From a virus, in IMG/VR virus record IMGVR_UViG_3300025118_000006, positions 14,500 to 78,499 of that record: 64,000 nucleotides of DNA. One strand, given 5' to 3'. How positions within the stretch are numbered: position 1 is the stretch's first letter; the number at the start of each line of letters is the position of its first letter. This document shows, piece by piece, positions 4,678-61,521 of this stretch. The translations under genes and the position numbers were made by a program. The notes beneath the pieces were generated by a model, which worked only from the letters and a program-made list of their open reading frames with translations, made no database searches and had not been told where the DNA came from.

Positions 4678-4915
4678 AACAGCCCCCCGTTCGCTCACGA
4701 GCATCGAACTCGCTTGCTGCTCTGATCAAGTGCGTGGCAAGGTTACGTGCTTGGGCAGATGACAGGTTGAGGCTTGGTCCTGGGTGCTCGATACGGACGG
4801 TGAAGAGGTTGCCTTCATCATATCCACCACAGACGCTCACGATGCCGTTAAGTGTGTTTATACCAGTACATTCCAGGCCCTCAAGCTCCGGCTGATTCAT
4901 TTCATTGCTAGTCAT
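4664..4915 (-). CDS. hypothetical protein
   Basis: GAGGA RBS; first gene after the promoter at 4982. Confidence 0.6.
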   Translation of the reverse strand: MTSNEMNQPELEGLECTGINTLNGIVSVCGGYDEGNLFTVRIEHPGPSLNLSSAQARNLATHLIRAASEFDARERTGGCYGKA

Positions 4916-4953
4916 AAAGGTGTCCTCTCGATAAAATAGTAGTAGTTACGCCA

Positions 4954-4982
4954 AATTTACAGCCCGTGGGGAAGATTGTCAA
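4954..4982 (-). promoter_or_regulatory. sigma70-like promoter divergent from TerL
   Basis: TTGACA-N17-TAAATT. Confidence 0.6.
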
Positions 4983-14384: not shown

Positions 14385-14794
14385 TGCGGTCGGTTGCGCT
14401 GATGCTTGTTATGGTTCTAGTTGGGCAAACCTCTCTAAAAGCACAGGTTTGCACTCAGGCGGTCGGAATCGAGGCTGGCGTCGTAACACCGTGCGACGGT
14501 GTGCTTTGGAGCCCTACGCACTCAGTACAGGCTGTGGAGTGCGTGTCTGTAGATCTACCGAAGTGTGTTGCAGATGTGGATTACCATAGCGGTCGGTCTG
14601 CTACTTGTCGCCAGCACATCTCGAAACTGGAGACATTGTGCGACGGGAAGATCGGCCAACTAATCGACATTGCTGAAGATGCTGCGGGCCTGAAGCCGGA
14701 GCCGTGGTATAAGAACCCGTGGCTGATGTTGGGATTAGGGGTGGTCATAGGCGGGGCTTCGGTTTACTATATTGGTACGAACTACGGGAACTAA
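14381..14794 (+). CDS. putative spanin-like protein (signal peptide, Cys-rich, C-terminal TM)
   Basis: N-terminal signal; six Cys; PWYKNPWL plus a TM tail. Confidence 0.45.
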   Translation: MMRSVALMLVMVLVGQTSLKAQVCTQAVGIEAGVVTPCDGVLWSPTHSVQAVECVSVDLPKCVADVDYHSGRSATCRQHISKLETLCDGKIGQLIDIAEDAAGLKPEPWYKNPWLMLGLGVVIGGASVYYIGTNYGN

Positions 14795-14796
14795 GC

Positions 14797-16413
14797 ATGG
14801 GTTGGTTAAAAAACATCGTTGCGCCAGACGTTATTGATCTGGAAAAAGCACGCAAAGCCGAGGTTGTGAACAAGTCAAAGGCTTGGAGCTTCGACCCAAA
14901 CGAGCTACGGACAGGTCTGTACGGCGGGCCTGAAGTAGCGGAGCACCAAGGTACGCTAGGGGTCAATTACAACACACTTATGGTTATGAGCCGGGTGCCC
15001 ATTATAGGTGCCATTATACAGCTTAGAACAAACCAGTTAGCTGAATTCGCGATGCCACAAATGTCGCGCTACGGCCTTGGATTTAAGATCGCGATGCGCG
15101 ACAAAAAAGCCAAGGCGACGACAGCAGCGGAAAATCAGATTAAGGAAATACAGACGCTCATACAGACATGTGGTGGCTACAAGTACGAACCCCAAGGTTT
15201 CGAGGGTTTCATGCGGAAGATTGTTCGAGATTCGCTCACCTATGATCAAGCGAACTTCGAGGTTGTTTACAACAAGGCCGGTAAGCCCGGAGCTTTCTGC
15301 GCTGTGGATGCGATGACAATCAGAAGAGCTATCCCAAAGGACGCCAAGCGCAAGGGCGGGGCAGCAGGTCTTGACAGCAACGATAAGGATGCTTTCGTTC
15401 AGGTTCTAGGCAATAAGCAGGTAGCTGAATTCGGAAGGCAGGAGATGGCTTGGGGGATTAGAAGACCCAGGACTTGGATGAGAGTAAACGGCTACGGCTA
15501 TCCAGAGTTGGAAGAGTCGATGAGGATCATAACAAACCTCTTGAATGCGGCTGAATACAACTCAAACAACTTCACTCATGGAGTTCACGCGAATTCGATT
15601 CTGACAGTGAAGTCTGGGATGTCGAAAGAGGTGTTTGCGGCTTTCAGGCGACAGTTTTACGCAATGGTTTCCGGGGTTCGCAATGCGAAGAGAACACCGA
15701 TTATCCAGCTTGACCCAGAGATGAAGGAAGAAATCTCAAACGTGTCAATGAGCCAATCGAACAAGGAAATGGAATACTCCAACTGGATGTCTTTCCTCCT
15801 TAAAGTCTTGTGTAGCGTGTACGGCCTGGACGCGGCAGAGCTAGGCTTCGTGTATGGCAACGAAGGGCAGGCGGCTTCACTCTCGCAAAAAGGGCCGGAG
15901 GAGCGAATTGTCGCGTCGAAGGAGCGTGGGTTGAGGCCGCTCGTTCGTGCCGTACAGGGATGGATGAATCAGTGGGTTGTTTACCCGGTAGACGAGGATT
16001 TTGAGATTCAATTCGTAGGTTTCGACGCTCACTCTGAATCAGAAAAGGTAGAGCTAGACACGAAGGCTGTAAAAGCGTTTAAAACCGTAAACGAAATCCG
16101 CGCAGAACACGACCTACCGCCACTCGAAGACAGCGTTGCTGACATGGTCTTAGATCCAACTTACGTGCAGTTTGCAACGGCGGGTGGAGAAGAAGAGGGC
16201 GGCGAGGAAGAAGGCGACTACGGGTCATATTTTGATGACTCTAAAGGCGACGAAGGCGAAGATGACGAGGAAAAGGGAGAAGAGGAAGTGCCCAGTGGCA
16301 AGCCGAAGAAGCCAGAGCCTCGAAAAAAAGAAGGCGGCAAAGGCGACTATAGTGACTCCTTTGAAGAGAAAACAGAAAAAGGGCTCCGAACGGTCACTAT
16401 CGAGGTGACCTAG
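14797..16413 (+). CDS. portal protein
   Basis: VRDSLTYDQANFE, GYGYPELE, N.F..G, KEMEYSNW..FL...CSVY..D..ELGF, SKERGLRPL, KTVNEIRA motifs (Twort/SPO1-type portal). Confidence 0.92.
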   Translation: MGWLKNIVAPDVIDLEKARKAEVVNKSKAWSFDPNELRTGLYGGPEVAEHQGTLGVNYNTLMVMSRVPIIGAIIQLRTNQLAEFAMPQMSRYGLGFKIAMRDKKAKATTAAENQIKEIQTLIQTCGGYKYEPQGFEGFMRKIVRDSLTYDQANFEVVYNKAGKPGAFCAVDAMTIRRAIPKDAKRKGGAAGLDSNDKDAFVQVLGNKQVAEFGRQEMAWGIRRPRTWMRVNGYGYPELEESMRIITNLLNAAEYNSNNFTHGVHANSILTVKSGMSKEVFAAFRRQFYAMVSGVRNAKRTPIIQLDPEMKEEISNVSMSQSNKEMEYSNWMSFLLKVLCSVYGLDAAELGFVYGNEGQAASLSQKGPEERIVASKERGLRPLVRAVQGWMNQWVVYPVDEDFEIQFVGFDAHSESEKVELDTKAVKAFKTVNEIRAEHDLPPLEDSVADMVLDPTYVQFATAGGEEEGGEEEGDYGSYFDDSKGDEGEDDEEKGEEEVPSGKPKKPEPRKKEGGKGDYSDSFEEKTEKGLRTVTIEVT

Positions 16414-16703
16414 TGAAAGTAATCGTAAAAGAATCCTTTTCAGGAGAGCTTGACAGTCGCCACGCGGTAGAAAAATTGGAACAGGCTATAAGCGAGTTCT
16501 CAGAACTTGCTGGGTTGGGGGTGGGTAATTCGTTCCAAAAGCACACTTGTGATGGCCACGAGGTTTTGGAAAAGGCCGTAAAGACACACGACCACCGAGT
16601 GGACGCTGTCGATGAGATGGTTGAGTTAATGCGTAAGGCTTATGAGAAGCGCATGAAGGCGATGGTCAAAGACATCGCGAAGCGTGTCAGCGATGGCGTC
16701 TAA
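16413..16703 (+). CDS. hypothetical head-associated protein
   Basis: Coupled to portal and MuF. Confidence 0.6.
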   Translation: MKVIVKESFSGELDSRHAVEKLEQAISEFSELAGLGVGNSFQKHTCDGHEVLEKAVKTHDHRVDAVDEMVELMRKAYEKRMKAMVKDIAKRVSDGV

Positions 16704-19183
16704 TGTCCTTACCACCAAAAATAGATGACATAGTATCCGCGCACCACGATGGGTTCCTCTACGATCTTTTTGGAGAAAGCCTCGGTCTTCCACTGGAAAG
16801 GGTCGCTGAGTTGCGAAGTATGGGGATACTTCCTGATATCCCGGTACCAATTTTAGCCCGTGCAGGGCTGGACGTATTGGCTGCTCGCCCGCTCATGATG
16901 GCCATGATGATTGGTGCCGCAAAGCAGTCGATGGAACCTGGGAGGCGAAAACAGGCAGACCGATGGCCCGCAAAGAAGTGGGCCAAGCAAATCATCAGAG
17001 ATGCCCCTTCGGTAAGTTCACCACCCCCGACTATCCCCTCGGTGACACCTATCGGTGGCGATACGCCTGACCTTCCACCACCACCTCCTCCTCCTCCGAC
17101 CGGATCGGGAGGTGGTGGGCCTAAACCACCGGACCCACCGGACTTTTTGACCGACCTACAGAGGCACTCTTGGACGCAAGCAAGGGAGCGTGCAGGATCG
17201 TTTGTTCGAGGGCTAGGTAACATTGTCACAGCAGAAGCAGAAACAACGCTTGCGGAAGTGTGGAACGGAGAGCAAATAGAGCGCGAGACAGACGCAGATA
17301 AGCGTGCAGAGGTTGTCGATATCATTCGGGAAGAGACGGCGGCAGCCACCGCCAACAACACGAAGTGGAGATCTAGTACAGCGCAAAAGCTCGCATCAAA
17401 CCTTGCACACAGGACTGGTGACTGGAGTCGCAATTGGGAGCGGATAGCGCGAACGGAGCTTCAGGGTGCGTACAATGAGGGCAGTGTGTTGGAGGCCATC
17501 GAATGGGACGGCCCAGACGCGCTCATAGCCAGAATACCTGAGCCAAGCGCGTGCGCTGATTGCCGACGTGTACACATGACACGAGATGGCAGGCCACGGG
17601 TTTTCAAGGCGAGCGACCTCATAAACAATGGTACAAATGTAGGCCGAAAACGCGCACAGTGGCAGGCTACTATCTGGCCCGTTCACCCGAATTGTAGATG
17701 CGACACGCAACACATCCCCGAGGGAATGGAGTTCGATGATGAGTGGGGGCTTGTATACAAGGCGTATTCATTCTCGCAGTTAGCGAACCTTGTAAAGGCC
17801 AAGGGCTATCTATACAAGGCAGGGCCTTTTATCGGTCCACGCGGTGGCAAGTGGGCTGACGCGAAGCATACGATAGCCTGGAAGGAAAAACAGACAACAA
17901 GGACTAAGGGGCATGAAATAGCAAGACTCCCGCCAGAGGTTCAATCAGAAATAGCAGGGGCGGTCACTTTTGTGACCCGCCTTTTTCCAGAATTGCAAGA
18001 TGTCCGCGTGGTGATTGCAGATCATGATCTTGGCCATTCTCACGCCACTAAGGACAGTAAAAAAATCAAGCTCAACCCCACAACTTGGCTGGACGTAAAT
18101 AAGCTAAAACAGCAACGGGATGAGGCGGCAGGGCTGGTGGTAGATGGGTCGATCAAGGGCATTATCGTACACGAGTTAGGCCATATACTGGCTGGCCGAA
18201 TACTCAACGCGCTTGGATCGAAAAAGTACAACGAAATAGCGCAAAAGCACTTAGGCGTACCGCAAGATGGCTTAGATCCGTGGGGAGAGCCTGTATTCAC
18301 CACGCTGTCTAACTCTGACATGCCAAGCGCATACGCTATGGATAACAGGAGCGAGTACGAGGCAGAAGCCTTTTCAGCAGCGGTATTTGGAAAAGCAGAA
18401 ACGAACCCCAAGTGGGCGGCAGGGGCTGTAAACAAGTCTAAAGCGTATTGGGCAGACATGCTCCACGCTTATCGAAATCTAAGCAAGTCATTAGCAAAAT
18501 CCGGTCCCTACATCGGCCCTCGCGGTGGTAAGTGGGCTGACGCCAAGCATACAATTGCGTGGAAGGAAAAGTCTAAGAGGCAGCTTAAAAGGGAGGCTTC
18601 GGAGAAGAGAAAGAAGGCGCGAGCGAGCGCAGAAGGGCCTGCGGTAGAGGCGTATAACAAGGCCGTTAAAGACCACAACGAACACGATGACGCTGGGTAT
18701 GACGCAAACGCTTCGGACATGGTCGATGTCGCGTACGGCGGGTACGCACCGGCAAAAATAGACGCCATGAAGGTTTGGGCCAAAAAGGTGGGGCTAGAGG
18801 TTGGCGAAACTGATTTTTCAGGTGGAGCATCGTATGGCAGCGCGTACATACAATTGAAAGTTCCAGGCATCGGCGCGGTGGGAGGATCAGGACGGTTGGA
18901 CCGGGCCGTTGTTGTGAGAATGTCGGATCACGGAAACATGGCGCGAGTTGGCGGGCGGCTGCAAACTGACACAAACATAGCGCCTGATTTTGGTTGGACT
19001 TTCATGAAAGGGATAGGGCACGCGATTGGTATCTTGCGCGAACGCTTTCAAGAGCACCTCGACAACGCAGACGACGACGATTATTTCGACCAAGACCCAG
19101 ATGGCGATGCAGAGCGCAAGCGAATGGAAGAGGCTATGCCACTTCTTGACAAGCTCGGAAAGCTGTACCGAAAACCCGGTTAA
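16703..19183 (+). CDS. MuF/SPP1 gp7-like head morphogenesis protein with two C-terminal cargo modules (zincin peptidase; RxSDH domain)
   Basis: RIARTE...AC.DC...PVHPNCRC MuF core; HELGH...SAYA...EYEAEAF; two GP[FY]IGPRGGKWADAKHTIAWKE leaders. Confidence 0.85.
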   Translation: MSLPPKIDDIVSAHHDGFLYDLFGESLGLPLERVAELRSMGILPDIPVPILARAGLDVLAARPLMMAMMIGAAKQSMEPGRRKQADRWPAKKWAKQIIRDAPSVSSPPPTIPSVTPIGGDTPDLPPPPPPPPTGSGGGGPKPPDPPDFLTDLQRHSWTQARERAGSFVRGLGNIVTAEAETTLAEVWNGEQIERETDADKRAEVVDIIREETAAATANNTKWRSSTAQKLASNLAHRTGDWSRNWERIARTELQGAYNEGSVLEAIEWDGPDALIARIPEPSACADCRRVHMTRDGRPRVFKASDLINNGTNVGRKRAQWQATIWPVHPNCRCDTQHIPEGMEFDDEWGLVYKAYSFSQLANLVKAKGYLYKAGPFIGPRGGKWADAKHTIAWKEKQTTRTKGHEIARLPPEVQSEIAGAVTFVTRLFPELQDVRVVIADHDLGHSHATKDSKKIKLNPTTWLDVNKLKQQRDEAAGLVVDGSIKGIIVHELGHILAGRILNALGSKKYNEIAQKHLGVPQDGLDPWGEPVFTTLSNSDMPSAYAMDNRSEYEAEAFSAAVFGKAETNPKWAAGAVNKSKAYWADMLHAYRNLSKSLAKSGPYIGPRGGKWADAKHTIAWKEKSKRQLKREASEKRKKARASAEGPAVEAYNKAVKDHNEHDDAGYDANASDMVDVAYGGYAPAKIDAMKVWAKKVGLEVGETDFSGGASYGSAYIQLKVPGIGAVGGSGRLDRAVVVRMSDHGNMARVGGRLQTDTNIAPDFGWTFMKGIGHAIGILRERFQEHLDNADDDDYFDQDPDGDAERKRMEEAMPLLDKLGKLYRKPG

Positions 19184-20123
19184 AAACACACTTGTTGAAC
19201 TGAAAGCCACTCCATAGTAATTTGAACTGAACAACTCGGAGCCCACAATGAAGACTTTTCAAAGCCTGAACGACATTTACAAGGCTGCAAAGAAGCCAAA
19301 GAAGGAAGAGAAGGAACCTGAAGAAGAGGTGTCCGAGGGGCAAATGTCCTTGTTTGACGGCCTAAAAAAGGCCGCAGACGAAGAAGAGGACGAGGACGAG
19401 AAGCGCGACAAGAAGCTGCAACAACGGCTCGACGAAGAGGCGGCTGGTGGCGAGGAAGAGTATAAGCGGATGAAAGAGGAAGAGGCTGAGAAGTCTTTCT
19501 CGGGCCTCGAAGGAATGGACATTGTCAAAAACATGGCCAAGGTCCAGGCCGAAATGAAGAGCGGGAAGTCCGCGAAAGAAGCTGTTCAGGCCGCATACCC
19601 GGATTACACCGAAGAGCAGGTAGAGATCTTTGTGAAGGACATGAAGAAAGGCTACGGCGTCTATCGTGCCAAGAAGGAAAAGAAGATGATTAAGTCAGAC
19701 AATGAGAACACACGGCTTGTGGTGAGCCTCACAAAAGGCGCATTGGAAGAGAGCGTTTCGATCATGCGAGGTGGTCCAAGTCGAGCAGACGTGGCTACAG
19801 CGTTGGCTTCATCGATTAAGAAGGGTTTCAACATCCCTGCGGAGTTCCCAGAGATGATGTTAGACGATCTCGACACATGCTCTAACGTAGCTCGCAAGAG
19901 CTTTGCTAATGCGTGCATGATGACCGCATCGGGATACCCAGAATTGCAGGTAGCTGGCGACATGGTCGGGTACCTTGAAGAGCTTACAGAAGGATAAATT
20001 ATGGCAGATTTTACGTCGCTAATTCATGGTGGGCTCAACGATCTCCGCAAGGGGAAGGGTCCGTTTATCGGACCCCGTGGCGGCAAGTGGGCCGATGCCA
20101 AGCATACAATTGCGTGGAAAGAG
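17822..20123 (+). repeat. three copies of the 22-aa motif GP[FY]IGPRGGKWADAKHTIAWKE (17822-17887, 18503-18568, 20058-20123) in two genes
   Basis: 21/22 aa identical with many synonymous nucleotide differences. Confidence 0.95.
19248..19997 (+). CDS. highly charged head-internal/scaffold-like protein
   Basis: E/K-rich; many x-K-[A/S/G] motifs; GGAG RBS. Confidence 0.6.
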   Translation: MKTFQSLNDIYKAAKKPKKEEKEPEEEVSEGQMSLFDGLKKAADEEEDEDEKRDKKLQQRLDEEAAGGEEEYKRMKEEEAEKSFSGLEGMDIVKNMAKVQAEMKSGKSAKEAVQAAYPDYTEEQVEIFVKDMKKGYGVYRAKKEKKMIKSDNENTRLVVSLTKGALEESVSIMRGGPSRADVATALASSIKKGFNIPAEFPEMMLDDLDTCSNVARKSFANACMMTASGYPELQVAGDMVGYLEELTEG

Positions 20124-23100
20124 GACGGTGGGAAGTCGGGTGGTAAAAAGTTCAAGCCGGACCCTGAGTATAAGTTAAGCTCGGAGGGGCATAACAAAAA
20201 AGACTACAACCGTGGCCTGAAGGAGGGGATGTCTAGCACGACAATCCCGCAAACGTCCGAAAAAGATAAGAAAGACACGAGCTATATGGCTGGCCTGAAA
20301 CAGGGCTTAATGGTGCAGATTAAGGCAAAAGACCACGCGAAAGCTCGCTATAAAATGCTGCGAGAAAGAGCAGACCGAGGTGAAAAGGGTGGGATTCCGA
20401 AGGGGTCTAGTGTCACCGAGAAAGTCTACATCGAGGCAAACACCGACGCCATCATGGAGAACATCCTGTCCGGCATGGAGCCGGACGGAAAGGGTGGCTA
20501 CAAGGGTGGCTATAGAAAAGCCTCCACCACCTTCTCGGACCTCGCGAAAGGAAAGCCCACAAAGTATCTCAAGCGTAAACGCGGCAAGGGTGGTCGCTAC
20601 GAGTACACCTACGCCGAAGACGGTAAACCTAAGAAGAAGAAGGGCCGCTTTGGGAACCTTCTAAGCACGTTGATGGGTGTCGTTAAGAAGCATCCATACG
20701 CGCTGATGGGTGAGTTTAAGTCGATGGTACGCGACTTCGATTTGGATGAGCTAATTGAGATGCGCTCCGAGATCAAAGACGCACTCGAAGCGAAACCTGA
20801 GAAGAAGGCTCCGGGCGAGAAGAAGGCTCCCAAGAAAGAAACCGCCGAAAAGAAAAAGCCAGCCCCAAAGAAAGGCCCGTCGGAGAAAGATATTCTTCGC
20901 CAGATGCTCAAGGCCATCGACAAGATGATCGCCAAGAAGCAGGAGGCGAACTCGAAGCTAAGTCTGAGGAGCTTGGTCGCGGGCTATCACAAGGGCGACA
21001 CTGAAGCGATTAAAGAGCTATACAAGAGAGCGCAGGAATTGCTTCCTGGCATTCGCATCTCAGACGCTCTTAACGTGGTCGCAACGGCGGCTGAAAACTA
21101 CGGGAAATTGCCGAAAGAATTTGTGGACGAGATGATTCGGGAGAACCGGGTCAAGGGCAAGAAGCCACCCGCAGCCGCTACAGAAGAGGCTCCGAAGCCC
21201 GCTGCCAAATACGAACGCTCAAAGTGGGCTGATTTTAAGAGCCAAATGGCCTCGTCTGACGGCGGCGCAAAATTAAACAGGCAATACGCGGAATTCGCGA
21301 AAAACGCACTGAAAGCCACGTCAAAGAAAGACCTAAAGCACGCCATCGAACAGGCGAAGGCAGCGAGTAGAAAGGATGACACGGTGGTCACTAGGACTGG
21401 TGTCGGGTATTCGACAGGAATCAAAGGCAAATTAAAGCGATTGCAAGCCCACTTGGAAAACAAGCTCAAGCTAGTGTCCAAGTATGGCGAGAGCGGGTTG
21501 GCCAAAGAAAGCGAAAAAAAGCAGAAAGAAAAGAAGCCAGTCACTCCGCAAGTTCCCGCGATGGAGGGCATGGCACCACTTGGAATAGCTCCGAAGCCCG
21601 CTGGCGAGGACATTGGCGTAGCCAAAGAGAGAGGCGACAACCGATACAAAAGCTCTGGCACCACCGACAAGGCCACGAATCACGATGAGATTATCGCCGC
21701 TGGCGGGGAATACCTCGGTCAAGGTGTGTACACGGATAAAGGTCCACCCAAGGCAAAGCGTGGGAAAAAGGGCAAGGTTGAGATCGTCCACCGTGGAGAA
21801 AAGAAACTGACCGATGGGACCATCTACGGCAAGGGTGACTGGGCCATCACTAAGCAACTTGAGTCGAAAAGGGTTACAGTGACAAACATAGCTACCGGGC
21901 ACTCCATCGGTGGCGAGATGTCCGGGCCACAGGCTTCGTACTTGATGGACCAAGTCATGGAATTGGAAGCGAGTGGAAAGCTGGACGGGTTCGACCCAGA
22001 CAATTTGTCCTCATCGTCATCAAAACCAGCGTTTGATGCTCTCAAGAAAGTCGCAGACGAAGTGCGCGAGGAAGGTAACTCTGGTATGCCTATCTGGAGC
22101 CGACGAAACAAGGCGAAACGAGAGGCTAACAGGCGGGCGAAGGTCGAGAAGCTCACCGAAGCAGCGTCCGTGAAAGGCGTCATCAGCCGCCCACTAGCCC
22201 TGGCTGATGTGAAAAGAAAAGAGCACAAGAGCGGAGAGGCCGCTCACAAGCGGGCAAGAAATTTTCAATCTACAGACGAATTCCGACTAAATCTTCAGCA
22301 GTCCATAGTAGACCGTTTCGAGGGCGAGCAGTACATGATTTCAACGGACGGCCACAGGATGGCGTTGATACCAGTATCGAATGACGTGAAACAAGGGGTG
22401 GGCTACGGCGAGGGTTCGCGAGATGCTCTGGGTGGAGGACGTGAATTTCCAAACTATAAGCAGGTCATACCGGATGACCGGAAGGCAAATGACACCCACG
22501 ACTTCGACGCCGAAACACTGCTGGCGCACGCGAAGCTGGGGGCATCGACGCCGGGTGTCATGGCGGGTTACGTTCATTTATACGCAGACGGTGGTGCCCA
22601 CAAAGCCCAAGCCAGTCATTCGGCTGTGATATCGCCTGAAGTTGACGAGAGGGAAAAGGGCATGGCGGGGATCGCTCTTGCGGAGTCCAAGCGCCCTTCC
22701 ACTGCGGGCGAGCCCACCGGAGGCGACAGCAAGAGCATCTCGGTGAACGCAAGGTATTTGGTAGACGCCCTTGAGGGCGCAAAAGGCTCAGTGTCCGTGT
22801 ATTACAAGGACAAAGGTAGCCAGATGATCATTGAAAGAGCCGATGGCGAGATACACGTCATCATGCCTGTGCGTGATGCTATGCCGAAGGACCACCCACA
22901 CAGGACGGAAGAGTGGGAGGTAAGCCCAGCCAGCAAGTCCTTCACCAACTTCTCCGATCTTTTCAAAGCGAAGCCCACCAAGTACAAGACTCGCAAGCGC
23001 GGAAAGGACGGAAGGTGGGTTTACACGTATGCTGAGAAGAAGGCACCGAAATCGCGGATGGGCGCGTTCTTGAACAAGATTGTCGGCTTTTTCTCTGAGC

Positions 23101-25319
23101 ACCACGACAAAGAGGATAACCTCATAGCGGCAGAAAAGAAGCTCATCTACGATCTGGAAACGCCACAGCTTGAGATGCTTAGGGATGCGATAAAGGCCGA
23201 ACTGGCCGCGATGGAAAAGAAGCCTGTTCCGGGGGCAAAGAAAAAGAAGCCCTCAAAGAAACGCTCGGGAGCACCCGTAACAGCAGAAAAGAAGGGGCCG
23301 TCACGCAAGCAAATTCTTCAGCAACTTCTTGCGAAGATCGATGGAGAGTTGGCTGCTCGCGCAATCGTGGGCTCCGCACCAACGGAGTCCGAAGACAACT
23401 TCGAGACGATGCCTGATGAGGAGTCCATCGGGCACCGTAGAGCCCGAGAAGTAATGGCCATGACCGTGAGCGATGCTTCACGGCTTGCGAGCGAAGAGCC
23501 AGGGACTCCGTTACGAGCCCCACACCACACAACATCGACACAAGGTTTACTCGGTGAACTTGACCAAGCGCAGGGGGGCATCCTATTTCTCGACCAGATC
23601 GAGGACTTCTCCCTTGAGTCGATCAAAAAGCTCGCAGTTGCGATGCGAGACAACCCCTATGTGATGATCGGGTACAGAACCACCGGCACCGGCACCGAAA
23701 CCGACAAGGTGAAGCTGAAGGCCCGCCTCGAAGCCCTGGGTGTTGATGTCAGCATGTGGGATGCCAATGAGGGCGTATCCGAAGACAACTTCGAGACGAT
23801 TCAAGAGCACTATAGCGCGAAGAAGCAGCTTCTCAGAGACGTGGACGTTGTTCGCGCCTCGAAACTTAATGAGCTTAACGTGCCGTCACACTCGGAAATT
23901 ATGGACCACGCGGTCAATCATTCCCATTATAGGCACGTTAAGCCAGCCTTTAAGAGTGCCAAGGAGAAAATTGACCGCCTAAATGAAGCTCTTGCGGCGC
24001 TAGGTGTAAGAGAGTGGCGGGGTTACAAAATAAAGCCGTTCGCCTCTAGCGACTTAGATGACTTAATCGCGATGAGGGATCAGATACGGCGCGATGAAGA
24101 AGCCCTAAGCGCGAGGGTGGGCTTGGTTTCGGTAGACCTTCCGTCGAATTCAATGATTGGCCGTGAGCATCCCGAGGTAGGGCCACAGATCAGGGAGGAA
24201 AGGGAGAAGTTAGAGGAGGTCAAATCGGCTATTGCAGCTTACAACAATGAGGGCACATCCGAAGACAACTTCGAGACGATGCCTGAAGCAACCACGCCCG
24301 TAAGCCAAGCGCATGAAGAGAATCGCCTGGACGCTGAGTTGCGAAGCAACAACACCAGCGAGCAGAAGGCCAACGAGAACATCTTCACGTATGCCGAAAA
24401 TGCCTTGGACCCGGACTCGCTTAAATTCGTCATCGAGTGGTCAGAAAGTGGTGCTGTAGAAGACGGCCAAGAGTTCGCATCAGTCAATGAGCTTAACGCC
24501 AAATTGCAGGAAATATCCGACCACCATAGGGAGCGGTACGGTCTTGGTGGTGGCTACTTTAAGACAAAGGTCTACGCTGAACTTGAGGGCAATCGGTTCT
24601 TTGGCAACCGTCTGGACGTTACATCGGGCGGCGAAGACGTAAATCTGGTAGATCACATGACTGCGATTTCTCATTATTACCAGTCCGACAGGGGTCGAGA
24701 ATATTGGTCGGCGGTTCAGGCTAACCAACGTGACAGGGGTGAAGAGACAGGCGAGCAGGCGCACGAGCGGGCGCAGTCGTATAAGAACATGGTTCAGCTA
24801 GTGCGGGACCATCAAAGAATTGCCAGTGGCTACGACATCGCAGGGGGCGACCCTCCTCAAGTAAAGTCTAAGAGAGAGTTAGACAAACTATCCGAAACAA
24901 GAAGAGCACAGGCCGATGCTTGGGAACAAGCAGAGCGAGAGGCCGAACAAAGAGCCGCCCAGGATGCTCACGCGGCTCGAACAGCAGGCTGGGAAGCCCC
25001 GCAGAGCAGGCGAGAGGTAACCAAGCGCGTTAAGCGAGCTATCGTTCAGGCGACTGGTTTGCCAGCGAAGGACGTTAGCGTTCGTGGTTCAACAGGGACC
25101 GCCTGGGGGTGGGTACGGATAAGCGGAAAAACGCAAGCAGCGCAAGCGGCTATTGATGCGTTTCAGGGAAGGACTTATTGGGGCAACATTTCTCCAGATG
25201 ACTGGGACAGGGCAACGCTAGAGTTTGAAATTGGTGCGGGCATTCACACTCCGGGCTCTATCTCGCGAGGCGGCTTCACTAACTTCTCAGACCTGCTCAA
25301 ATCAATAGGCCGTGCCTAA
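20001..25319 (+). CDS. large polyvalent/cargo polyprotein (beta-clamp-like, ComM/YifB-like fragment, LPD25-like domains)
   Basis: STDGHRMA...FPNYKQVIP...VNARYLVDAL...VIMPVR; PLRAPHHT...GILFLDQIEDF; VIEWSES...GYFKTK; repeated linkers and leaders. Confidence 0.75.
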   Translation: MADFTSLIHGGLNDLRKGKGPFIGPRGGKWADAKHTIAWKEDGGKSGGKKFKPDPEYKLSSEGHNKKDYNRGLKEGMSSTTIPQTSEKDKKDTSYMAGLKQGLMVQIKAKDHAKARYKMLRERADRGEKGGIPKGSSVTEKVYIEANTDAIMENILSGMEPDGKGGYKGGYRKASTTFSDLAKGKPTKYLKRKRGKGGRYEYTYAEDGKPKKKKGRFGNLLSTLMGVVKKHPYALMGEFKSMVRDFDLDELIEMRSEIKDALEAKPEKKAPGEKKAPKKETAEKKKPAPKKGPSEKDILRQMLKAIDKMIAKKQEANSKLSLRSLVAGYHKGDTEAIKELYKRAQELLPGIRISDALNVVATAAENYGKLPKEFVDEMIRENRVKGKKPPAAATEEAPKPAAKYERSKWADFKSQMASSDGGAKLNRQYAEFAKNALKATSKKDLKHAIEQAKAASRKDDTVVTRTGVGYSTGIKGKLKRLQAHLENKLKLVSKYGESGLAKESEKKQKEKKPVTPQVPAMEGMAPLGIAPKPAGEDIGVAKERGDNRYKSSGTTDKATNHDEIIAAGGEYLGQGVYTDKGPPKAKRGKKGKVEIVHRGEKKLTDGTIYGKGDWAITKQLESKRVTVTNIATGHSIGGEMSGPQASYLMDQVMELEASGKLDGFDPDNLSSSSSKPAFDALKKVADEVREEGNSGMPIWSRRNKAKREANRRAKVEKLTEAASVKGVISRPLALADVKRKEHKSGEAAHKRARNFQSTDEFRLNLQQSIVDRFEGEQYMISTDGHRMALIPVSNDVKQGVGYGEGSRDALGGGREFPNYKQVIPDDRKANDTHDFDAETLLAHAKLGASTPGVMAGYVHLYADGGAHKAQASHSAVISPEVDEREKGMAGIALAESKRPSTAGEPTGGDSKSISVNARYLVDALEGAKGSVSVYYKDKGSQMIIERADGEIHVIMPVRDAMPKDHPHRTEEWEVSPASKSFTNFSDLFKAKPTKYKTRKRGKDGRWVYTYAEKKAPKSRMGAFLNKIVGFFSEHHDKEDNLIAAEKKLIYDLETPQLEMLRDAIKAELAAMEKKPVPGAKKKKPSKKRSGAPVTAEKKGPSRKQILQQLLAKIDGELAARAIVGSAPTESEDNFETMPDEESIGHRRAREVMAMTVSDASRLASEEPGTPLRAPHHTTSTQGLLGELDQAQGGILFLDQIEDFSLESIKKLAVAMRDNPYVMIGYRTTGTGTETDKVKLKARLEALGVDVSMWDANEGVSEDNFETIQEHYSAKKQLLRDVDVVRASKLNELNVPSHSEIMDHAVNHSHYRHVKPAFKSAKEKIDRLNEALAALGVREWRGYKIKPFASSDLDDLIAMRDQIRRDEEALSARVGLVSVDLPSNSMIGREHPEVGPQIREEREKLEEVKSAIAAYNNEGTSEDNFETMPEATTPVSQAHEENRLDAELRSNNTSEQKANENIFTYAENALDPDSLKFVIEWSESGAVEDGQEFASVNELNAKLQEISDHHRERYGLGGGYFKTKVYAELEGNRFFGNRLDVTSGGEDVNLVDHMTAISHYYQSDRGREYWSAVQANQRDRGEETGEQAHERAQSYKNMVQLVRDHQRIASGYDIAGGDPPQVKSKRELDKLSETRRAQADAWEQAEREAEQRAAQDAHAARTAGWEAPQSRREVTKRVKRAIVQATGLPAKDVSVRGSTGTAWGWVRISGKTQAAQAAIDAFQGRTYWGNISPDDWDRATLEFEIGAGIHTPGSISRGGFTNFSDLLKSIGRA
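23388..24286 (+). repeat. three perfect 23-bp direct repeats TCCGAAGACAACTTCGAGACGAT (23388, 23778, 24258), in frame (SEDNFET)
   Basis: Identical at synonymous positions; spacing 390 and 480 bp. Confidence 0.95.
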
Positions 25320-26083: not shown

Positions 26084-26842
26084 ATGTACGAGAATAATAT
26101 CGACGTATTCAGCGCATGGACCCCGTTCGACGTTGTCGAAAAGGGTGAGTCCGAAAGCAGTCCTAGTGGTCGTATCTCCGGTGTTGTTTCAACTGAGACG
26201 GTAGACCAACAGGGCGAGCAGGTTGTACAGAAGGGCCTCGACTGGGACTATTTCCTGAGCAAGGGTTGGTTCAACTGGGAGCACGCGGCTGGGCCTGAAA
26301 ATGTTCTAGGGTACCCAGACAAGGTTGAACCCGTAGAAATCAACGGAACCCACGCAACTCGCGTAGAGGGCCGTCTCTTGATGAACAAGGCTAAGGCCAA
26401 AGAAATTTACAATACGGCGGTAAGTCTACAGAAGTCGGAATCAAACCGACGGCTTGGATTTTCCATCGAGGGTCAGGTGTTAGAGCGCGAAGGGAAGACG
26501 ATCAAAAAAGCTCGTATTCTCAATGTTGCGATAACTGCTCACCCGATTCATCCAGACGCACGTTTGGAGATCCTAGCGCAATCACTCCTCGCCCGCGCCG
26601 CCTCTGTCGGCTATCAAACCCCAGCCGGTGAGGGCGGCTCTATAGCACCTTTGGTCGCACAATCTCTGGAAGGCTCAGTTTCAACTGCCACCTTCGGGGC
26701 TCGTGGTCTTGAAGCGTATTTGAAGAGCTTGAAAGAGGAAGACCTGATTGCGCTGCGTATTCTAAAGAGCTTTCCAACGCTCAATTTTGGAGACGCACAT
26801 TCCATAGTAACAGACTTTTTACGAAAAAAGGGAGTCCTCTAA
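26084..26842 (+). CDS. prohead protease
   Basis: ISGVVSTETVDQQGEQVVQKGLDWDYF..GWFNWEH, LGFSIEG, NVAITAHP motifs (Twort/SPO1-type). Confidence 0.9.
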   Translation: MYENNIDVFSAWTPFDVVEKGESESSPSGRISGVVSTETVDQQGEQVVQKGLDWDYFLSKGWFNWEHAAGPENVLGYPDKVEPVEINGTHATRVEGRLLMNKAKAKEIYNTAVSLQKSESNRRLGFSIEGQVLEREGKTIKKARILNVAITAHPIHPDARLEILAQSLLARAASVGYQTPAGEGGSIAPLVAQSLEGSVSTATFGARGLEAYLKSLKEEDLIALRILKSFPTLNFGDAHSIVTDFLRKKGVL

Positions 26843-27578: not shown

Positions 27579-29009
27579 ATGCTTTCAATGCCCCAAGCAA
27601 ACGACCTAGTGTCGGTGAAGGACTTGCATGAGCTTAACAAAGCTCTCCGCAAGGCCACAGCGGCTGGCTACCAGACACCAGCCAGCCAAACACCAGACGG
27701 CAACACCACCTTTAGCCCACTGGTGCCTCAATCTATTGAGGCGACTCTCGCTTCAAAAACTTTCACTATGGACGAACTCGTTCTGTGGAAAATGCTGCCT
27801 AAACGCGCAGTTTCTCAAACCGTTCATGAGTACACCGTTGTAAATGAGCATGGTGGAGATATGGACCCATTCTTCGTGGAAGGTGGTGGTGGATATGAAT
27901 CCCTCAGCACTTACGAAAGAAAGAGTCTGCGAATCAAGTACCTCATGGAAAAGCGAGAGGTTACTGACGTGGCCTCTATGGTCGGAATCATCGGCAATAA
28001 CGCAAACGCTATTGCTGAAGCCACCGAGCGTGGAACCATCTCTCTTTTGAGCAAGTTGGAGAAGCAGCTTTTTATCGCTGACTCCAGCATCAACCCACTT
28101 GCATTCGATGGTATCGATAAGCAGATGGCTGATGGCGCTCCTAACAATGTCAGCAACCTTGCTGGTGATGACCTTACTCCAATGAAGTTGCAGGAAATCC
28201 TGTCTGGCTCCTATGCCGAGCCAAACTTCGGTAAGCCATCCGTAGTTCTCGTTGAGCCTCGCGTACACGCGCAGCTTATTGAGCAGGCTACTGCTTATGG
28301 TCGCCACGACATGATGGGCACGGGACAGGGAACAATGACCTTCGGTCGTTCCGACCTCCGCATCTCGGTGCCTTACGGTACTGGTTCCGTACCTGTAGTT
28401 GGTTGCCCGTTCTTGTACCCAGAAGGTGCACCGAACGCAGCCGCTGTTGGTACTGCACCGACAGCACCTTCTGCTTTCAACACCCCTACCGTTGCAACTC
28501 ACGCTTCTTCCCTGTTCCTCTCCGGCGATGCCGGAACTTACTACTACCACGCGGTAGCAGTAGGACAGGGCGGTAAGTCAGCACCGATTGTGTCGGCTGC
28601 TATAACAGTAGCTGCTGGTGAGCGAGTATCCGTTGGTATTAACGATGACGCCCTTGCTACACCAGTAAGCGGCTCCGAGAACACTGCAAGTATCTTGTAC
28701 TACAAGATTTATCGCAGCACGACCGGCGTCCACGCTGATGCAAAGTGGGCCTTCAACGTCAAGAAAGCGGATACCAGTAGTGACACCGCATTCAACGATG
28801 ACAACCTTCACCGCCCTGGCATGTCCAAGGCGTATGCTCTTCAGATGACTCCAGATGTAATCGAGTGGGTAAAACTTCTCGACTTCATCCGTCGTCCTCT
28901 TGCAGAGGTGAAGACCACTAAACCATTCTTGCTCATGCTCTTTGGTGCGCTAAACATCAAAGTTCCGACCAAGAACTGGCTTATCCGTAACATCAAGACT
29001 AATCCTTGA
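27579..29009 (+). CDS. major capsid protein
   Basis: Propeptide then K|ATAAGYQTP; QSIE..L; HEY; LE..LF.ADS.I.PL.FDG; Ig-like insertion; C-terminal LFGAL.IK.P.K...IRNI; terminator follows. Confidence 0.9.
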   Translation: MLSMPQANDLVSVKDLHELNKALRKATAAGYQTPASQTPDGNTTFSPLVPQSIEATLASKTFTMDELVLWKMLPKRAVSQTVHEYTVVNEHGGDMDPFFVEGGGGYESLSTYERKSLRIKYLMEKREVTDVASMVGIIGNNANAIAEATERGTISLLSKLEKQLFIADSSINPLAFDGIDKQMADGAPNNVSNLAGDDLTPMKLQEILSGSYAEPNFGKPSVVLVEPRVHAQLIEQATAYGRHDMMGTGQGTMTFGRSDLRISVPYGTGSVPVVGCPFLYPEGAPNAAAVGTAPTAPSAFNTPTVATHASSLFLSGDAGTYYYHAVAVGQGGKSAPIVSAAITVAAGERVSVGINDDALATPVSGSENTASILYYKIYRSTTGVHADAKWAFNVKKADTSSDTAFNDDNLHRPGMSKAYALQMTPDVIEWVKLLDFIRRPLAEVKTTKPFLLMLFGALNIKVPTKNWLIRNIKTNP

Positions 29010-29028
29010 TGTTATAGTACTATGAGTT

Positions 29029-29072
29029 AGCCGCCTCTTCTTAGCGGGGGAGGCGGCTGCTTGTGTGCTTTT
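29029..29072 (+). terminator. probable intrinsic terminator after MCP
   Basis: AGCCGCCTC...GAGGCGGCT stem followed by a U-rich tract. Confidence 0.65.
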
Positions 29073-29101
29073 AGTGTTAATTAACCTGGGAGGAAGTACC
29101 G

Positions 29102-29362
29102 ATGGCGGTAATCTGGAAACATAAAACAATTCGCAACAGCACTGTTGTGGTTGGCTCTGAAACCTATCAGATTGATGGAGAAGGCGTTTTGTCGCCTGAA
29201 TTGTCGGAGCCAGCATCAACACGTTTGCTAGGTATTCCCGGCTATTCGTGTTCGCGAGTGCCCGATGCGAAGCCAAAAGAAAAACCTGCGCCGAAGAAAA
29301 ATCCAGCAGCCAAAAAGGCTGCCCCAAAGAAAAAAGCGGCTGCAAAGCCTAAGAAAAAATAA
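29102..29362 (+). CDS. small protein with Lys/Ala/Pro-rich tail
   Basis: GGAGG RBS; PKKxxAAKK repeats. Confidence 0.7.
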   Translation: MAVIWKHKTIRNSTVVVGSETYQIDGEGVLSPELSEPASTRLLGIPGYSCSRVPDAKPKEKPAPKKNPAAKKAAPKKKAAAKPKKK

Positions 29363-29373
29363 GGAGAATTCTC

Positions 29374-29904
29374 ATGGCCGATCCTACCGGAACCAACATG
29401 ACAGCCGCGAAAGCCAAGGCGATTGACGCGACTGACCCTGCCCTCTACGAATTACGTCTTTGCGAGCGTGTGCAACAGCTTCGCACAGACCACGAAAACC
29501 CAGTTCTCAGCACTGTGTCTGCGCCTGCGAGCACCACAACCACGCTCACATCCGCACAGTCCGGCAGCGTGGTGCTTATGGCACCGAACGCAGCCGCAAT
29601 CGTACTGCCTACGCCATCTGTTGGCCTGAACTACAAAATTGTTCTCACAGCAGACTACGCCACGGCTGTATGCACTGTGAAAACAGCGACCACAGACGGT
29701 TCGGTGCATTTTGTCGGTGGCTGGACCTCTCCAGACTCTAACCACGGAGCGGCGTCCAACAACAGCAGCAATGATGCCATCACCTTCGGCGCTGATACAG
29801 AGGCGGGTGACAACATCGACCTGACCTGCATTAGTGCCACACAGTGGCTTGTGACCGGGTTCTCGAACGCGACGACGAACGGAATCACAATCGCTGACGC
29901 ATAG
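29374..29904 (+). CDS. putative capsid decoration/fibre protein
   Basis: TLTSAQSG.V......I.LP...GLNY...W.V.G beta module. Confidence 0.6.
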   Translation: MADPTGTNMTAAKAKAIDATDPALYELRLCERVQQLRTDHENPVLSTVSAPASTTTTLTSAQSGSVVLMAPNAAAIVLPTPSVGLNYKIVLTADYATAVCTVKTATTDGSVHFVGGWTSPDSNHGAASNNSSNDAITFGADTEAGDNIDLTCISATQWLVTGFSNATTNGITIADA

Positions 29905-29928
29905 TCTTAGTCAATAAGGAGATAGGCG

Positions 29929-30672
29929 GTGGCCATCGCAGATCAAGTTTCAGTCAGCTTTCTCAAGACCAACTTTTTAGCTGGTGTTGACCTGACATTT
30001 GATGATGGCACCGCCTACCCCGACTCTCTTTATCAGCAGAGTATTGATGCAGCCATTTCTTGGCTAGAAGCAGACCTTGAGGTGGTGTTCGATGATGCCA
30101 CCTTCACGGAACGCTACGATGCGCGTGATATTGATCGCAACGCATTCTGGTTAATTCACGTAAATAAGCGTCCGATAAAATCTGTTACGTCGTTAAAGGC
30201 ACGCTACGGGTCTTTCGACGGGGTAACATTCCCGGTAGATTGGATTCACATATCTTCGGAGATAGGTGGCCAGCTTCAGGTCATTCCGGGTCCATCGAGT
30301 ATGGGTAGTTTTGCGTTTACATCCGGTGTACCGTTGCTTATTGGCGACGTGTTTATGCCAGTGGAGTACATGCCGTTGTGGTGGGAGATTACTTACACGG
30401 CGGGGTTTACCAGTCTTCCAAAAGACCTTATCCATGCGATAGCTCTGAAGGCAGCCTTACTCCCTCTTGATGTTGCCGGTGACCTCATTGCGGGCGCAGG
30501 CATCGCGAACAAGTCGATTTCTGTCGATGGGTTGAGCCAGACAATTGGCACGACGGCATCGGCTACGAACGCTGGCTATGGTAGTCGGATTCTTCAATAT
30601 GAACGGGAGCTTAAAGCACTCTTGCCACAGCTTCGGAAGCGTTATCGCGGCAAGAACATGATGGTGATCTAA
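29929..30672 (+). CDS. head-tail adaptor (neck) protein
   Basis: I.AAI..LE..L, RPI.SV, ITYTAGF..LP.DL, GAGIA..SISVDGLSQ...T.SA...GYGSRI. Confidence 0.8.
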   Translation: MAIADQVSVSFLKTNFLAGVDLTFDDGTAYPDSLYQQSIDAAISWLEADLEVVFDDATFTERYDARDIDRNAFWLIHVNKRPIKSVTSLKARYGSFDGVTFPVDWIHISSEIGGQLQVIPGPSSMGSFAFTSGVPLLIGDVFMPVEYMPLWWEITYTAGFTSLPKDLIHAIALKAALLPLDVAGDLIAGAGIANKSISVDGLSQTIGTTASATNAGYGSRILQYERELKALLPQLRKRYRGKNMMVI

Positions 30673-31874
30673 TGCTTCTGCCGGTAGATACCCCAGCAAA
30701 GCTGTCGCCAAGAGTCGATTTCCGACCAGAGGAATTTAAGAAGCTACTGTTCTCGCACGGTCTACGTTTGAAGTGGGAACAAGCAGCGACTTGCCCCTGC
30801 AACATAAAGGTGACCGCAAACGAAGGTGTCGCTGCTTATCTGAAGACAGGCTTTACTGGAGAGACGCGGGTTGCGTGCCCTGCCTGCAACGGCACAGGTG
30901 TTATCTACCACAGTAGCCAAGAGGTTCGCGCTATCGTCACGAGCGCAAGAACGAATCCAGAACGCTTTAAACTCTACGGAGAGCACGCTGAAGGCGCGAT
31001 GGGGCTCACGCTATTACCAGAACACCTTCCGGGCTTCTTAGACCGATTTACGCTCCTTGATGCCGTCATTGTGTACACGGAGACACGCGAGCGAAAGAAG
31101 GCCAAGGCTTCCGCAACCATTACCGTTACATCGGGTTCAGCGCAAACGGTGGGTGACAAGGTGACGATTAACGTACCTGTTGCAGCCGGTGGCACTGGGT
31201 CTGCTATAGACGTACCTTTAGTGGCGAGCAACGGGGTGCCAAGCCTCGAATCAGCAAACTCCTTTCAGTCCTCAACGGACAAGGTCGAGCAAGCCAGATA
31301 TATAGCAGCCGCGATCAACAACGCGGTTTCAGGTGTCTTTGCATCTACAGAAAACCGGCCTGTGGTTACGATACAAGCTACGACATCTGGCACTGCTGGA
31401 AACGCTATAACGGTGGTGGCGACACAGTCGAGTAGTTGGATGACGGTTTCGGGCTCACCACTGAGTGGTGGCGACGATAACGTGATGAAGATGCGGTACC
31501 CGATTGTGAAACGAACGCTCGCGCTCACGGGCGGGAGCAAAACTTTTGGAACGATGTATCTTCGTAGCGCACTGACCGATAATGTCATGGGTAATATCGC
31601 CACGACCGTTTGCGCTGAGGATACGGACTTCAGCGTGAACGGCGATGGTGACCTCGATTTTTCGTCGGCAACATCGAAGACCCCAGCGGTAGGAAATATG
31701 TTTACGGTTTCGTACTACGCCAATCCGAGATTCATAGTACGTGACCACCCACATAGCCTCCGAGTCTCATACGTGAAGGAAAAAAGCGTATCCGCAACGA
31801 AGACGGAGATGCCTGTAAATGTAAATTGCTGGCTCGAATTCAGAGGCGACCCTGAGAGGTTTAGTGATGGCTGA
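30672..31874 (+). CDS. neck/head-closure protein with inserted Ig-like domain
   Basis: WEQA..CPC...CPAC.G.G; DRFTL; SYYANP.F motifs. Confidence 0.7.
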   Translation: MLLPVDTPAKLSPRVDFRPEEFKKLLFSHGLRLKWEQAATCPCNIKVTANEGVAAYLKTGFTGETRVACPACNGTGVIYHSSQEVRAIVTSARTNPERFKLYGEHAEGAMGLTLLPEHLPGFLDRFTLLDAVIVYTETRERKKAKASATITVTSGSAQTVGDKVTINVPVAAGGTGSAIDVPLVASNGVPSLESANSFQSSTDKVEQARYIAAAINNAVSGVFASTENRPVVTIQATTSGTAGNAITVVATQSSSWMTVSGSPLSGGDDNVMKMRYPIVKRTLALTGGSKTFGTMYLRSALTDNVMGNIATTVCAEDTDFSVNGDGDLDFSSATSKTPAVGNMFTVSYYANPRFIVRDHPHSLRVSYVKEKSVSATKTEMPVNVNCWLEFRGDPERFSDG

Positions 31875-59503: not shown

Positions 59504-59513
59504 CGTCACACCC

Positions 59514-59557
59514 CTGGCTGACCGGCTCGCAGCCTTTACTCCATCCCGGTCAGCCAG
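59514..59557 (+). terminator. 12-bp perfect stem-loop after the amidoligase (terminator or processing site)
   Basis: CTGGCTGACCGG...CCGGTCAGCCAG; no strong U tract. Confidence 0.5.
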
Positions 59558-59617
59558 CCCCTCGGGGTTATTCTAAAGCTGTTGACAGCGTGACCATTAT
59601 TTGAAACAAAGGACATA

Positions 59618-61511: not shown

Positions 61512-61521
61512 GGGGTGTGTG

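Follow-up and report, generated by a model that had tools for sequence, protein, structure and literature searches.

We analysed 64,000 nucleotides of viral DNA (the window; positions 14,500 to 78,499 of IMG/VR virus record IMGVR_UViG_3300025118_000006, which is 78.5 kb long and about 54% complete), in which a single gene carries three copies of a 23-bp sequence, TCCGAAGACAACTTCGAGACGAT. The gene (20001–25319, + strand) lies between those for a MuF-family minor head protein and the prohead protease, and its translation, P0001, is a polyvalent cargo protein of 1772 residues. The 23-mers start at 23388, 23778 and 24258 on the + strand, have no mismatch among them and are all in frame within the one open reading frame (ORF), reading SEDNFET followed by M, I and M. 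Copy 1 (23388–23410, + strand) encodes SEDNFET(M) and then PDEE, copy 2 (23778–23800, + strand) encodes SEDNFET(I)QE, a degenerate peptide copy in which M is replaced by I and P by Q, and copy 3 (24258–24280, + strand) encodes SEDNFET(M) and then PEAT.

A first-pass annotation, made from the sequence of the window, had described these perfect repeats, their additional shared flanks and the unrelated units between them, and had read the whole as an array of cassettes; the description is borne out. The copies are spaced 390 and 480 bp apart, and the two units so defined are unrelated to each other (BLASTP E = 0.82). Copies 2 and 3 belong to a common 36-nt stretch of 94% identity, with extra shared bases upstream, and copies 1 and 3 have six extra bases in common, GCCTGA. 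With the codon usage of the window, the probability of drawing the same seven codons three times independently is ~4e-6. Copies of the GP[FY]IGP tag and of the PTKY anchor in the same genes differ at third positions, unlike the 23-mer, as had been pointed out for the GPFIGP leaders. No further copy of the 23-mer was found in the window when up to three mismatches were allowed (100 shuffles likewise yielded none), and the whole record holds none beyond the three of the window, nor any orphan cassette bearing the encoded motif. The exact 23-mer had no match in the other IMG/VR viral contigs searched; it is present in one distant relative (L123), in a different context.

P0001 is a mosaic. An N-terminal tag (GPFIGPRGGKWADAKHTIAWKE, 20058–20123, + strand; the MuF gene has two more, at 17822 and 18503, and the copies are distinct from one another at third codon positions) is followed by two units that combine xFSDLxK[GA]K with a basic-aromatic anchor, by a beta-clamp-like domain (phrog_947, E = 4e-8) and then by the three-repeat region. 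A third leader unit (22941–23387, + strand), consisting of SFTNFSDLFK↓AK, the anchor PTKY..RKRGK.GR..YTYAE, a Lys-rich linker and a helix, stops at repeat copy 1. Cassette 1 (23412–23777, + strand, 122 residues) is a ComM/Mg-chelatase-like AAA+ fragment (RAPHH..GGILFLD) without a visible P-loop. The first-pass assignment to ComM/YifB holds as a likeness, in that the Pfam matches are of the right kind (Mg_chelatase/ComM-type and Sigma54_activat) but weak (E about 6e-4) and below the cut-off. Cassette 2 (23802–24257, + strand, 152 residues) has no recognisable family. The C-terminal cargo (24282–25274, + strand) includes the LPD25 domain that had been suspected after the last repeat (about 24414–24683, Pfam), which reaches 29.1 bits (cut-off 27) in a scan of the C-terminal segment by itself and 26.1 bits on whole P0001. 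The protein ends in the tail FTNFSDLLKSIGRA (25275–25316, + strand). The AlphaFold model of residues 1100–1300 is poor (mean predicted local distance difference test score, pLDDT, 53) and too weak to build on; in it the first motif has no secondary structure around it, at pLDDT <50.

Cassette 1 is 80–89% identical in P0002, the closest relative of P0001 that we found, and 35% identical in four other relatives (L014, L037, L064 and L211), where it stands without an upstream motif. The ComM-like unit keeps RAPH[HY]..S and GG[IV]L.L[DE] (the Walker-B region), without a visible P-loop, in P0001 (23412–23777), in L014 (about 4800–5080) and in L083. Because it recurs as a cargo domain in several proteins of the clade described below, we take it to be a conserved truncated AAA+ module and not debris.

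A clade-wide peptide and its codons

The 23-mer is the coding sequence of a short peptide, [S/G/A][E/A/P]-D-N-F-E-T-M-P-E, with the core N-[F/W]-[E/D]-T-M-P (the motif, DNFETMP). A DNA scan with degenerate codons for EDNFET(M/I) brought up many viral contigs whose giant ORFs contain (S/P)EDNFETMPE. DNFETMP occurs in more than 119 metagenome contigs, and more than 50 viral and metagenome contigs carry the peptide between domains of giant polyvalent proteins, together with related portal, MuF, protease and capsid genes. Compared with the window by tblastn, the motif-bearing contigs show 51–54% identity in the large terminase (TerL), 43–52% in the portal, 31–49% in MuF, 39–49% in the prohead protease and 31–49% in the major capsid protein (MCP). 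The carriers are a large clade of uncultured aquatic tailed phages. No close relative emerged from blastn against phages or from related-locus searches with P0001 and the MCP, and the window MCP is <30% identical to those of Thermus and SPO1-like phages.

Across 52 non-redundant motif ORFs (66,521 residues) there are 70 exact copies of DNFETMP and 19 variants with a single mismatch, all of which we grade as conservative (D to N, S or E; N to R; F to W or L; E to D; P to E); T and M are constant. Pro, Glu, Ser, Ala and Thr abound in the flanks, and the residue after P is E in 56 of the 65 unique instances. A HMMER profile built from 40 motif-centred 45-mers and run against 1.84 billion representative proteins matched 62 clusters at E <= 1e-3 (17 of them at E <= 1e-10), nearly all 800–3165 residues long with 2–6 motif copies and the core N-[F/W]-[E/D]-T-M-P; over the at least 62 clusters, the number of copies per protein ranges from 1 to 6. 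Most clade proteins follow one grammar, with an anchor at about residues 20–85, the first motif about 110–250 residues later and then cargo, often with more motifs, and P0001 fits this grammar from residue 985 on. A Pfam scan of 30 clade proteins found ddrB-ParB in 6, SNF2 with Helicase_C in 3, and ART-PolyVal, Eco57I/N6 methylase, RadC, DarA_C, LPD25 and Mg_chelatase once each. We found no mention of DNFETMP, NFETMP, FETMPE or related strings in the literature searched, and the peptide is apparently undescribed so far.

Some proteins carry tandem pairs or triplets of the motif 12–13 residues apart (P0004, P0012, P0015, L089 and L155), and decayed copies (TETAREV, AETMREVE) stand immediately upstream of intact ones; such copies may be footprints of cassette loss or landing pads. 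Leptospira LE1-like phages, which are relatives of the motif carrier L042, have the anchor and ParB and no motif. In phage LE1 (L235), gp26 (28608–31187) is a ParB-domain protein that starts with the basic-aromatic anchor KYYKREPKAKGGYRYWY and lacks DNFETMP; the anchor is thus more widespread than the motif. A motif scan of genome contigs gave 11 matches, all chance-like in short ORFs or unrelated proteins, which we rejected as evidence of a prophage carrier or host.

Comparison of codons separates selection on the peptide from selection on the DNA. Between genomes, the motif codons are identical in 51% of 3807 comparisons, against about 50% expected from codon usage. Genomes differ freely in the codons but keep the residues constant, which places selection at the level of the peptide; with synonymous positions as diverged as codon usage predicts, a conserved DNA recognition site is ruled out. 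The primary selected object is the peptide DNFETMP, not the 23-mer. The first-pass annotation had named, as the outcome that would speak against its cassette array, close relatives with the same domains in the same order and a diverged repeat, so that only the SEDNFET peptide is conserved; half of that outcome is what we find, in that very distant relatives keep the peptide with diverged codons.

Within genomes, 135 of 165 comparable codons are identical where 82.5 would be expected. Among within-genome pairs with unrelated far flanks (<45% identity beyond 15 nt on either side of the motif), and with the window left out, the figure is 81 of 101 codons against 51.5 (binomial p about 1e-9), and identity limited in this way to the motif recurs in 14 other genomes (about 80%, 51% being expected). 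Copies within L042, L089, L095 and L097 differ synonymously. The homogenised tract is about 25–45 nt long and often takes in ~5 upstream residues that vary between genomes. Each genome has its own 'flavour' of the extended motif, and the perfect 23-mer of the window is one such flavour.

Exchange of modules at the motif

P0002 (1491 residues, from a Logan assembly) is built on the same scaffold as P0001 in a protein comparison. Its order is leader, motif, an 82-residue cassette, motif, ComM-like unit, motif and unrelated cargo; that of P0001 is leader, motif, ComM-like unit, motif, cassette 2 (not in P0002), motif and LPD25 cargo. The first motif of P0001 is a hybrid, with an upstream side that matches motif 1 of P0002 and a downstream side that matches motif 2, and therefore one cassette-plus-motif unit has been gained or lost by a crossover inside EDNFETMP. 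Past the ComM-like unit the two proteins share nothing until their last 13 residues (the NFSDLL tail), where DNA homology to a P0002-type contig resumes. A comparison of related genomes for different cassettes had been proposed at first pass, and P0002 does carry a different set.

Ends of homology between motif-bearing genes are concentrated around the motif. In blastn comparisons of different ORFs (high-scoring segment pairs of at least 150 nt and at least 75% identity), 25 of 149 internal alignment ends (16.8%) are no more than 15 nt away from a motif, compared with 2.4% of random positions, an enrichment of about 7-fold. Example alignments of 93–97% identity stop 1–11 nt from the motif, and the breakpoints scatter over about 0–15 nt around it and do not fall on one phosphodiester bond. 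Clustering of segments places the same cargo family in different neighbourhoods.

Assemblies of marine metagenomes gave further junctions. In run X6, a short contig matches the window only at 23388–23423 (the motif plus 13 nt), with both flanks unrelated to the window, and in another contig the window sequence is joined, exactly at the NFSDLL tail, to a C-terminus of the P0002 type. Two other samples have contigs that bridge the order seen in the window, across copies 2–3 (X3 record 5) and across copies 1–2 (X4 record 13). Joints skipping 390, 480 or 870 bp were absent from the Logan contigs of four marine runs, which drop rare variants. A search for free genes, in which a cargo homologue would start exactly at the motif Met, gave one ambiguous case (P0055).

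Modules that are unrelated in all other respects have only the motif in common, and the junctions at which modules have been gained, lost or swapped fall on the DNA that encodes it. We infer that modules are exchanged by general recombination, homologous or dependent on microhomology, together with gene conversion, either among copies or among relatives that infect the same cell, and that no site-specific recombinase is involved. Neither a further 23-mer nor a recombinase, both suggested at first pass as things to look for, was found in the about 54% complete record, in which tyrosine (PF00589) and serine (PF00239) recombinases had no match.

Head genes and possible roles of the peptide

P0001 lies in a head module with the gene order large terminase (4983–6644), portal (14719–16413, + strand), MuF (16703–19183, + strand), a 249-residue ORF, P0001, prohead protease of the HK97/S78 type (26084–26842, + strand), a 240-residue acidic ORF and MCP (phrog_752; 27579–29009, + strand). 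The acidic ORF has no family match and is probably the scaffold. His67 and Ser127 of the protease are invariant in 13 clade members. The MuF protein carries two GP[FY]IGP tags and, between them, a HELGH zinc-peptidase-like motif (about 18170–18184), for which the sole family match is a weak one to M48 (E = 0.0086); with the window MuF as tblastn query, the relatives' contigs match over the MuF core and the tags and not over the HELGH part.

The N-terminus of the MCP and the C-terminus of the protease share L-x-K-[GAS]-x-VGYQTP...LVPQ[SQ]L across the clade. The shared block, [GAS]-x-VGYQTP...(L/I)SPLVPQ[SQ]L..T.S, lies at 27579–27760 in the MCP and at 26580–26700 in the protease and is kept in all clade members examined. 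To judge from the sequences, this segment is the likeliest prohead-protease site. It resembles the xFSDLxK↓[GAS] junctions of P0001, where a second short motif, x-F-[ST]-[DS]-L-x-K-[GAS], occurs at the N-terminus (MADFTSL..LRK↓G), before each anchor and in the C-terminal tail (20001–20123, 20520–20618, 22941–23040 and 25275–25316; also 19248–19300). Because of its resemblance to the L-x-K-[GAS] segment of the MCP and protease, this second motif may be the real prohead-protease or capsid-targeting signal. The 249-residue ORF starts MKTFQSL, which resembles the N-terminal form of the second motif, and many clade proteins end in similar amphipathic tails (FSDIVHKALR, LLDLYKALRC, ALYKALYKI).

Elsewhere in the window, a second giant ORF (7108–10641, 1177 residues) between terminase and portal has neither a family match nor DNFETMP; the relatives L014 and L037 have a motif-bearing polyvalent gene in this position. 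The ORFs of 72 and 151 residues downstream of P0001 have no family match. An Amidoligase_2 gene (E = 1e-31) followed by a gamma-glutamyl cyclotransferase (GGACT/AIG2-like) gene (58454–60214) could encode a peptide-ligation or modification pair. Just after them come SbcD-like (61384–62643) and SbcC-like (62600 to the window end at 64000) genes on the + strand, which are genes of general recombination and repair; nothing ties them to the repeats. SbcCD and annealing genes had been named at first pass as a possible source of homologous recombination; the former are present, whereas RecT, ERF and Rad52 had no match in the record.

We consider it probable that the peptide is a delimiter of polyvalent cargo proteins whose coding DNA doubles as microhomology for general recombination. 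By its position, the motif separates the N-terminal packaging leader (anchor plus Lys-rich linker) from the first cargo, and the cargo domains from one another, within linkers rich in Pro, Glu, Ser and Ala. At the peptide the polyprotein would be taken apart or otherwise handled, and the motif codons, as the sole shared sequence, would serve general recombination and gene conversion. Our leading candidate for the role of the peptide, put forward tentatively, is that of a proteolytic processing site. A release or handling signal would fit the seven near-invariant residues (F changes only to W or L), the position between modules in disorder-prone linkers and the Met-Pro that opens the next module.

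Several observations weigh against the delimiter reading and the processing role. DNFE and NF[SE][DT] occur only in P0001, the motif is absent from the capsid, scaffold, portal and protease proteins, and DNFETMP is unlike the L-x-K-[GAS]...VGYQTP...LVPQ segment; if the motif is cut, a second specificity or another agent would be needed. A metallopeptidase is visible only in the MuF gene of the window phage and not in the relatives scanned. The enrichment of breakpoints is expected in part if the motif merely marks domain borders, the motif is not obligatory at a domain boundary because the same cargo domain occurs with or without it upstream, and the pairs behind the codon and breakpoint tests are not phylogenetically independent. 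No cultured phage with the motif was found. No peptidase family was matched at E <= 1e-4 in 30 clade proteins. A complex prediction that paired the prohead protease alignment with a 45-residue motif alignment scored 0.00, which speaks neither way.

The peptide might instead be a docking motif, a one-turn amphipathic element with Phe/Trp and Met on one face and acidic flanks that would tether its module to a conserved partner (portal, MuF, capsid interior or a host factor) during packaging or ejection. The invariance of N-[F/W]-[E/D]-T-M-P with F giving way only to W or L, flanks that look disordered and acidic, tandem copies 12–13 residues apart in several proteins and the dissimilarity to the putative prohead-protease site would all suit docking. 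We rank it next after processing, as the strict place between modules and the Met-Pro opening of the next module fit release better than tethering. Quite improbable, to our minds, is a separator that would act without a protease, by Asn-driven autocleavage (D-N↓F), as is known in nodavirus and tetravirus capsid maturation, or by ribosomal skipping or arrest at M↓P. In its favour, a simple linker would seldom have seven or eight invariant residues, Pro is the last residue of the motif, and the only conserved dedicated protease that co-occurs is the prohead protease, whose own sites look different. The 2A consensus D(V/I)ExNPG↓P, which stands at the C-terminus of the upstream product, has only its terminal Pro in common with the motif, however; we know of no precedent for 2A-like skipping in bacteria, and repeat copy 2 lacks both M and P. 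Were such a separator real, one ORF would yield several free effectors inside bacteria, each starting Met-Pro, and the same codons would double as a recombination handle for reshuffling the injected arsenal. A purely structural linker is likewise unlikely.

Other explanations place the weight on the DNA. The cassette array of the first-pass annotation, in which a dedicated recombinase would insert, excise or swap in-frame cassettes at the 23-mer as in an integron or shufflon, can point to exact 23-bp direct repeats flanking unrelated in-frame units, to cassette sets that differ among relatives and to a small hairpin inside the repeat. What survives of it is that modules are exchangeable and that recombination occurs at the repeat, as seen from P0002, the breakpoints and the homogenised codons; a fixed DNA site with dedicated machinery is very improbable, since only the peptide is conserved across the clade, no tyrosine or serine recombinase was matched in the about half-complete record, the exact 23-mer is absent from the other IMG/VR contigs searched, the hairpin hinges on the codon choice of this lineage and the breakpoints are spread around the motif. 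Alternatively, the three copies could go back to one recent duplication or import, so that the DNA would have no continuing role and only the peptide would matter. In its favour, seven codons make up little sequence, copies 2 and 3 have further bases in common upstream, and in some relatives the copies differ synonymously. The flanks of the three copies are unrelated, so that no segmental duplication is visible, and such an accident of recent history, which we hold to be improbable, would not account for codon identity limited to the motif in 14 other genomes or for the concentration of homology breakpoints there. The least probable explanation is an RNA or DNA structural or regulatory element (hairpin, internal start or small-RNA target) that is coding by chance. 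Copies 1 and 3 fold better than shuffles (z = -3.5 and -3.0) and an ATG stands at the 3' edge of the repeat, but copy 2 folds no better than shuffles (z = -0.2), no Rfam family matches, no Shine-Dalgarno-like sequence lies at a usable distance and the amino-acid changes seen in the motif are conservative (F to W, for example). We rejected the hairpin and the internal start because GAG and TTT codons in relatives abolish the stem CGAAG/CUUCG, and at the level of the clade an RNA or DNA element is largely refuted.

A delimiter of this kind bears on how polyvalent proteins can be packaged in a single chain and still function as several effectors, for which it would offer a mutable handle on processing. 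Used as a search key, the motif finds the cargo genes of a whole clade of uncultured aquatic phages and splits the cargo into candidate anti-defence modules, many of no known family. Concerted evolution limited to the motif, together with the clustering of breakpoints, indicates in numbers that one short set of codons can serve both as a peptide signal and as a recombination junction, and phages would have a polymorphic-toxin-like way to diversify injected cargo.

Comparison with known systems

Polyvalent proteins, which include Dar/DdrB of phage P1, are extensively mosaic. Iyer et al. (2017; PMC5512222) propose that such proteins are packaged and injected and that processing yields separate units, a task they assign to embedded metallopeptidase (MPTase) domains. 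P0001 likewise is a giant multi-domain ORF with unrelated effector domains in a virion module, beside MuF and portal. Its domains are several (clamp-like, ComM-like fragment and LPD25), and the clade adds ddrB-ParB, SNF2, methylase, ART-PolyVal and RadC; LPD25 is itself an LPD domain, and the setting among virion genes is found as the same module in relatives. By domain content and gene setting, P0001 is a member of the phage polyvalent proteins. It differs in the strictly conserved delimiter of 7–8 residues, for which term searches of PMC5512222 gave no inter-domain counterpart, and no MPTase was detected in the clade relatives scanned.

In polymorphic toxins, a short conserved pre-toxin motif (such as PT-VENN of CdiA, or the Rhs junction) stands between the unvarying part that directs trafficking and the variable C-terminal modules. 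The motif is held to mark a site of processing, and modules are renewed by recombination with cassettes (Zhang et al., 2012; PMC3482391). Term searches of that survey gave no delimiter like DNFETMP. The clade proteins resemble polymorphic toxins in their anchor, the motif about 110–250 residues later and the variable cargo that follows; they differ in being phage virion cargo, in carrying the motif several times per protein and in its unrelated sequence. They are not polymorphic toxin systems, since a secretion system, an immunity gene and orphan cassettes are all missing. The MuF polymorphic toxins of temperate phages have the effector fused to MuF itself (Jamet et al., 2017; PMC5576092), and term searches of PMC5576092 gave no mention of recombination, linkers, conserved or pre-toxin motifs or cleavage, nor any such delimiter. 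Common to both are the head module, the MuF domain and variable C-terminal effectors carried by phage particles, whereas the window has MuF as a gene by itself and a cargo protein with leaders and delimiters of its own.

The internal proteins of phage heads offer another parallel, as in-head cargo with short signals that is cut at a short consensus during maturation. In T4 the IP proteins are cut at L/I-x-E, and in phiKZ the inner-body proteins are cut at S/A/G-x-E. Unlike these prohead-protease sites, DNFETMP is missing from the capsid, scaffold and protease proteins of the window phage and does not resemble their L-x-K-[GAS] segment. In the mosaic genomes of lambdoid phages, short conserved boundary sequences between modules serve as junctions for homologous recombination. 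The junction described here differs in lying inside one reading frame, in encoding a selected peptide and in being homogenised within the genome. It differs from integrons and shufflons in that no tyrosine or serine recombinase was matched in the about half-complete record and that the site is not conserved as DNA among relatives. New here are the delimiter peptide, its breadth, and the quantified homogenisation and junction use of its codons.

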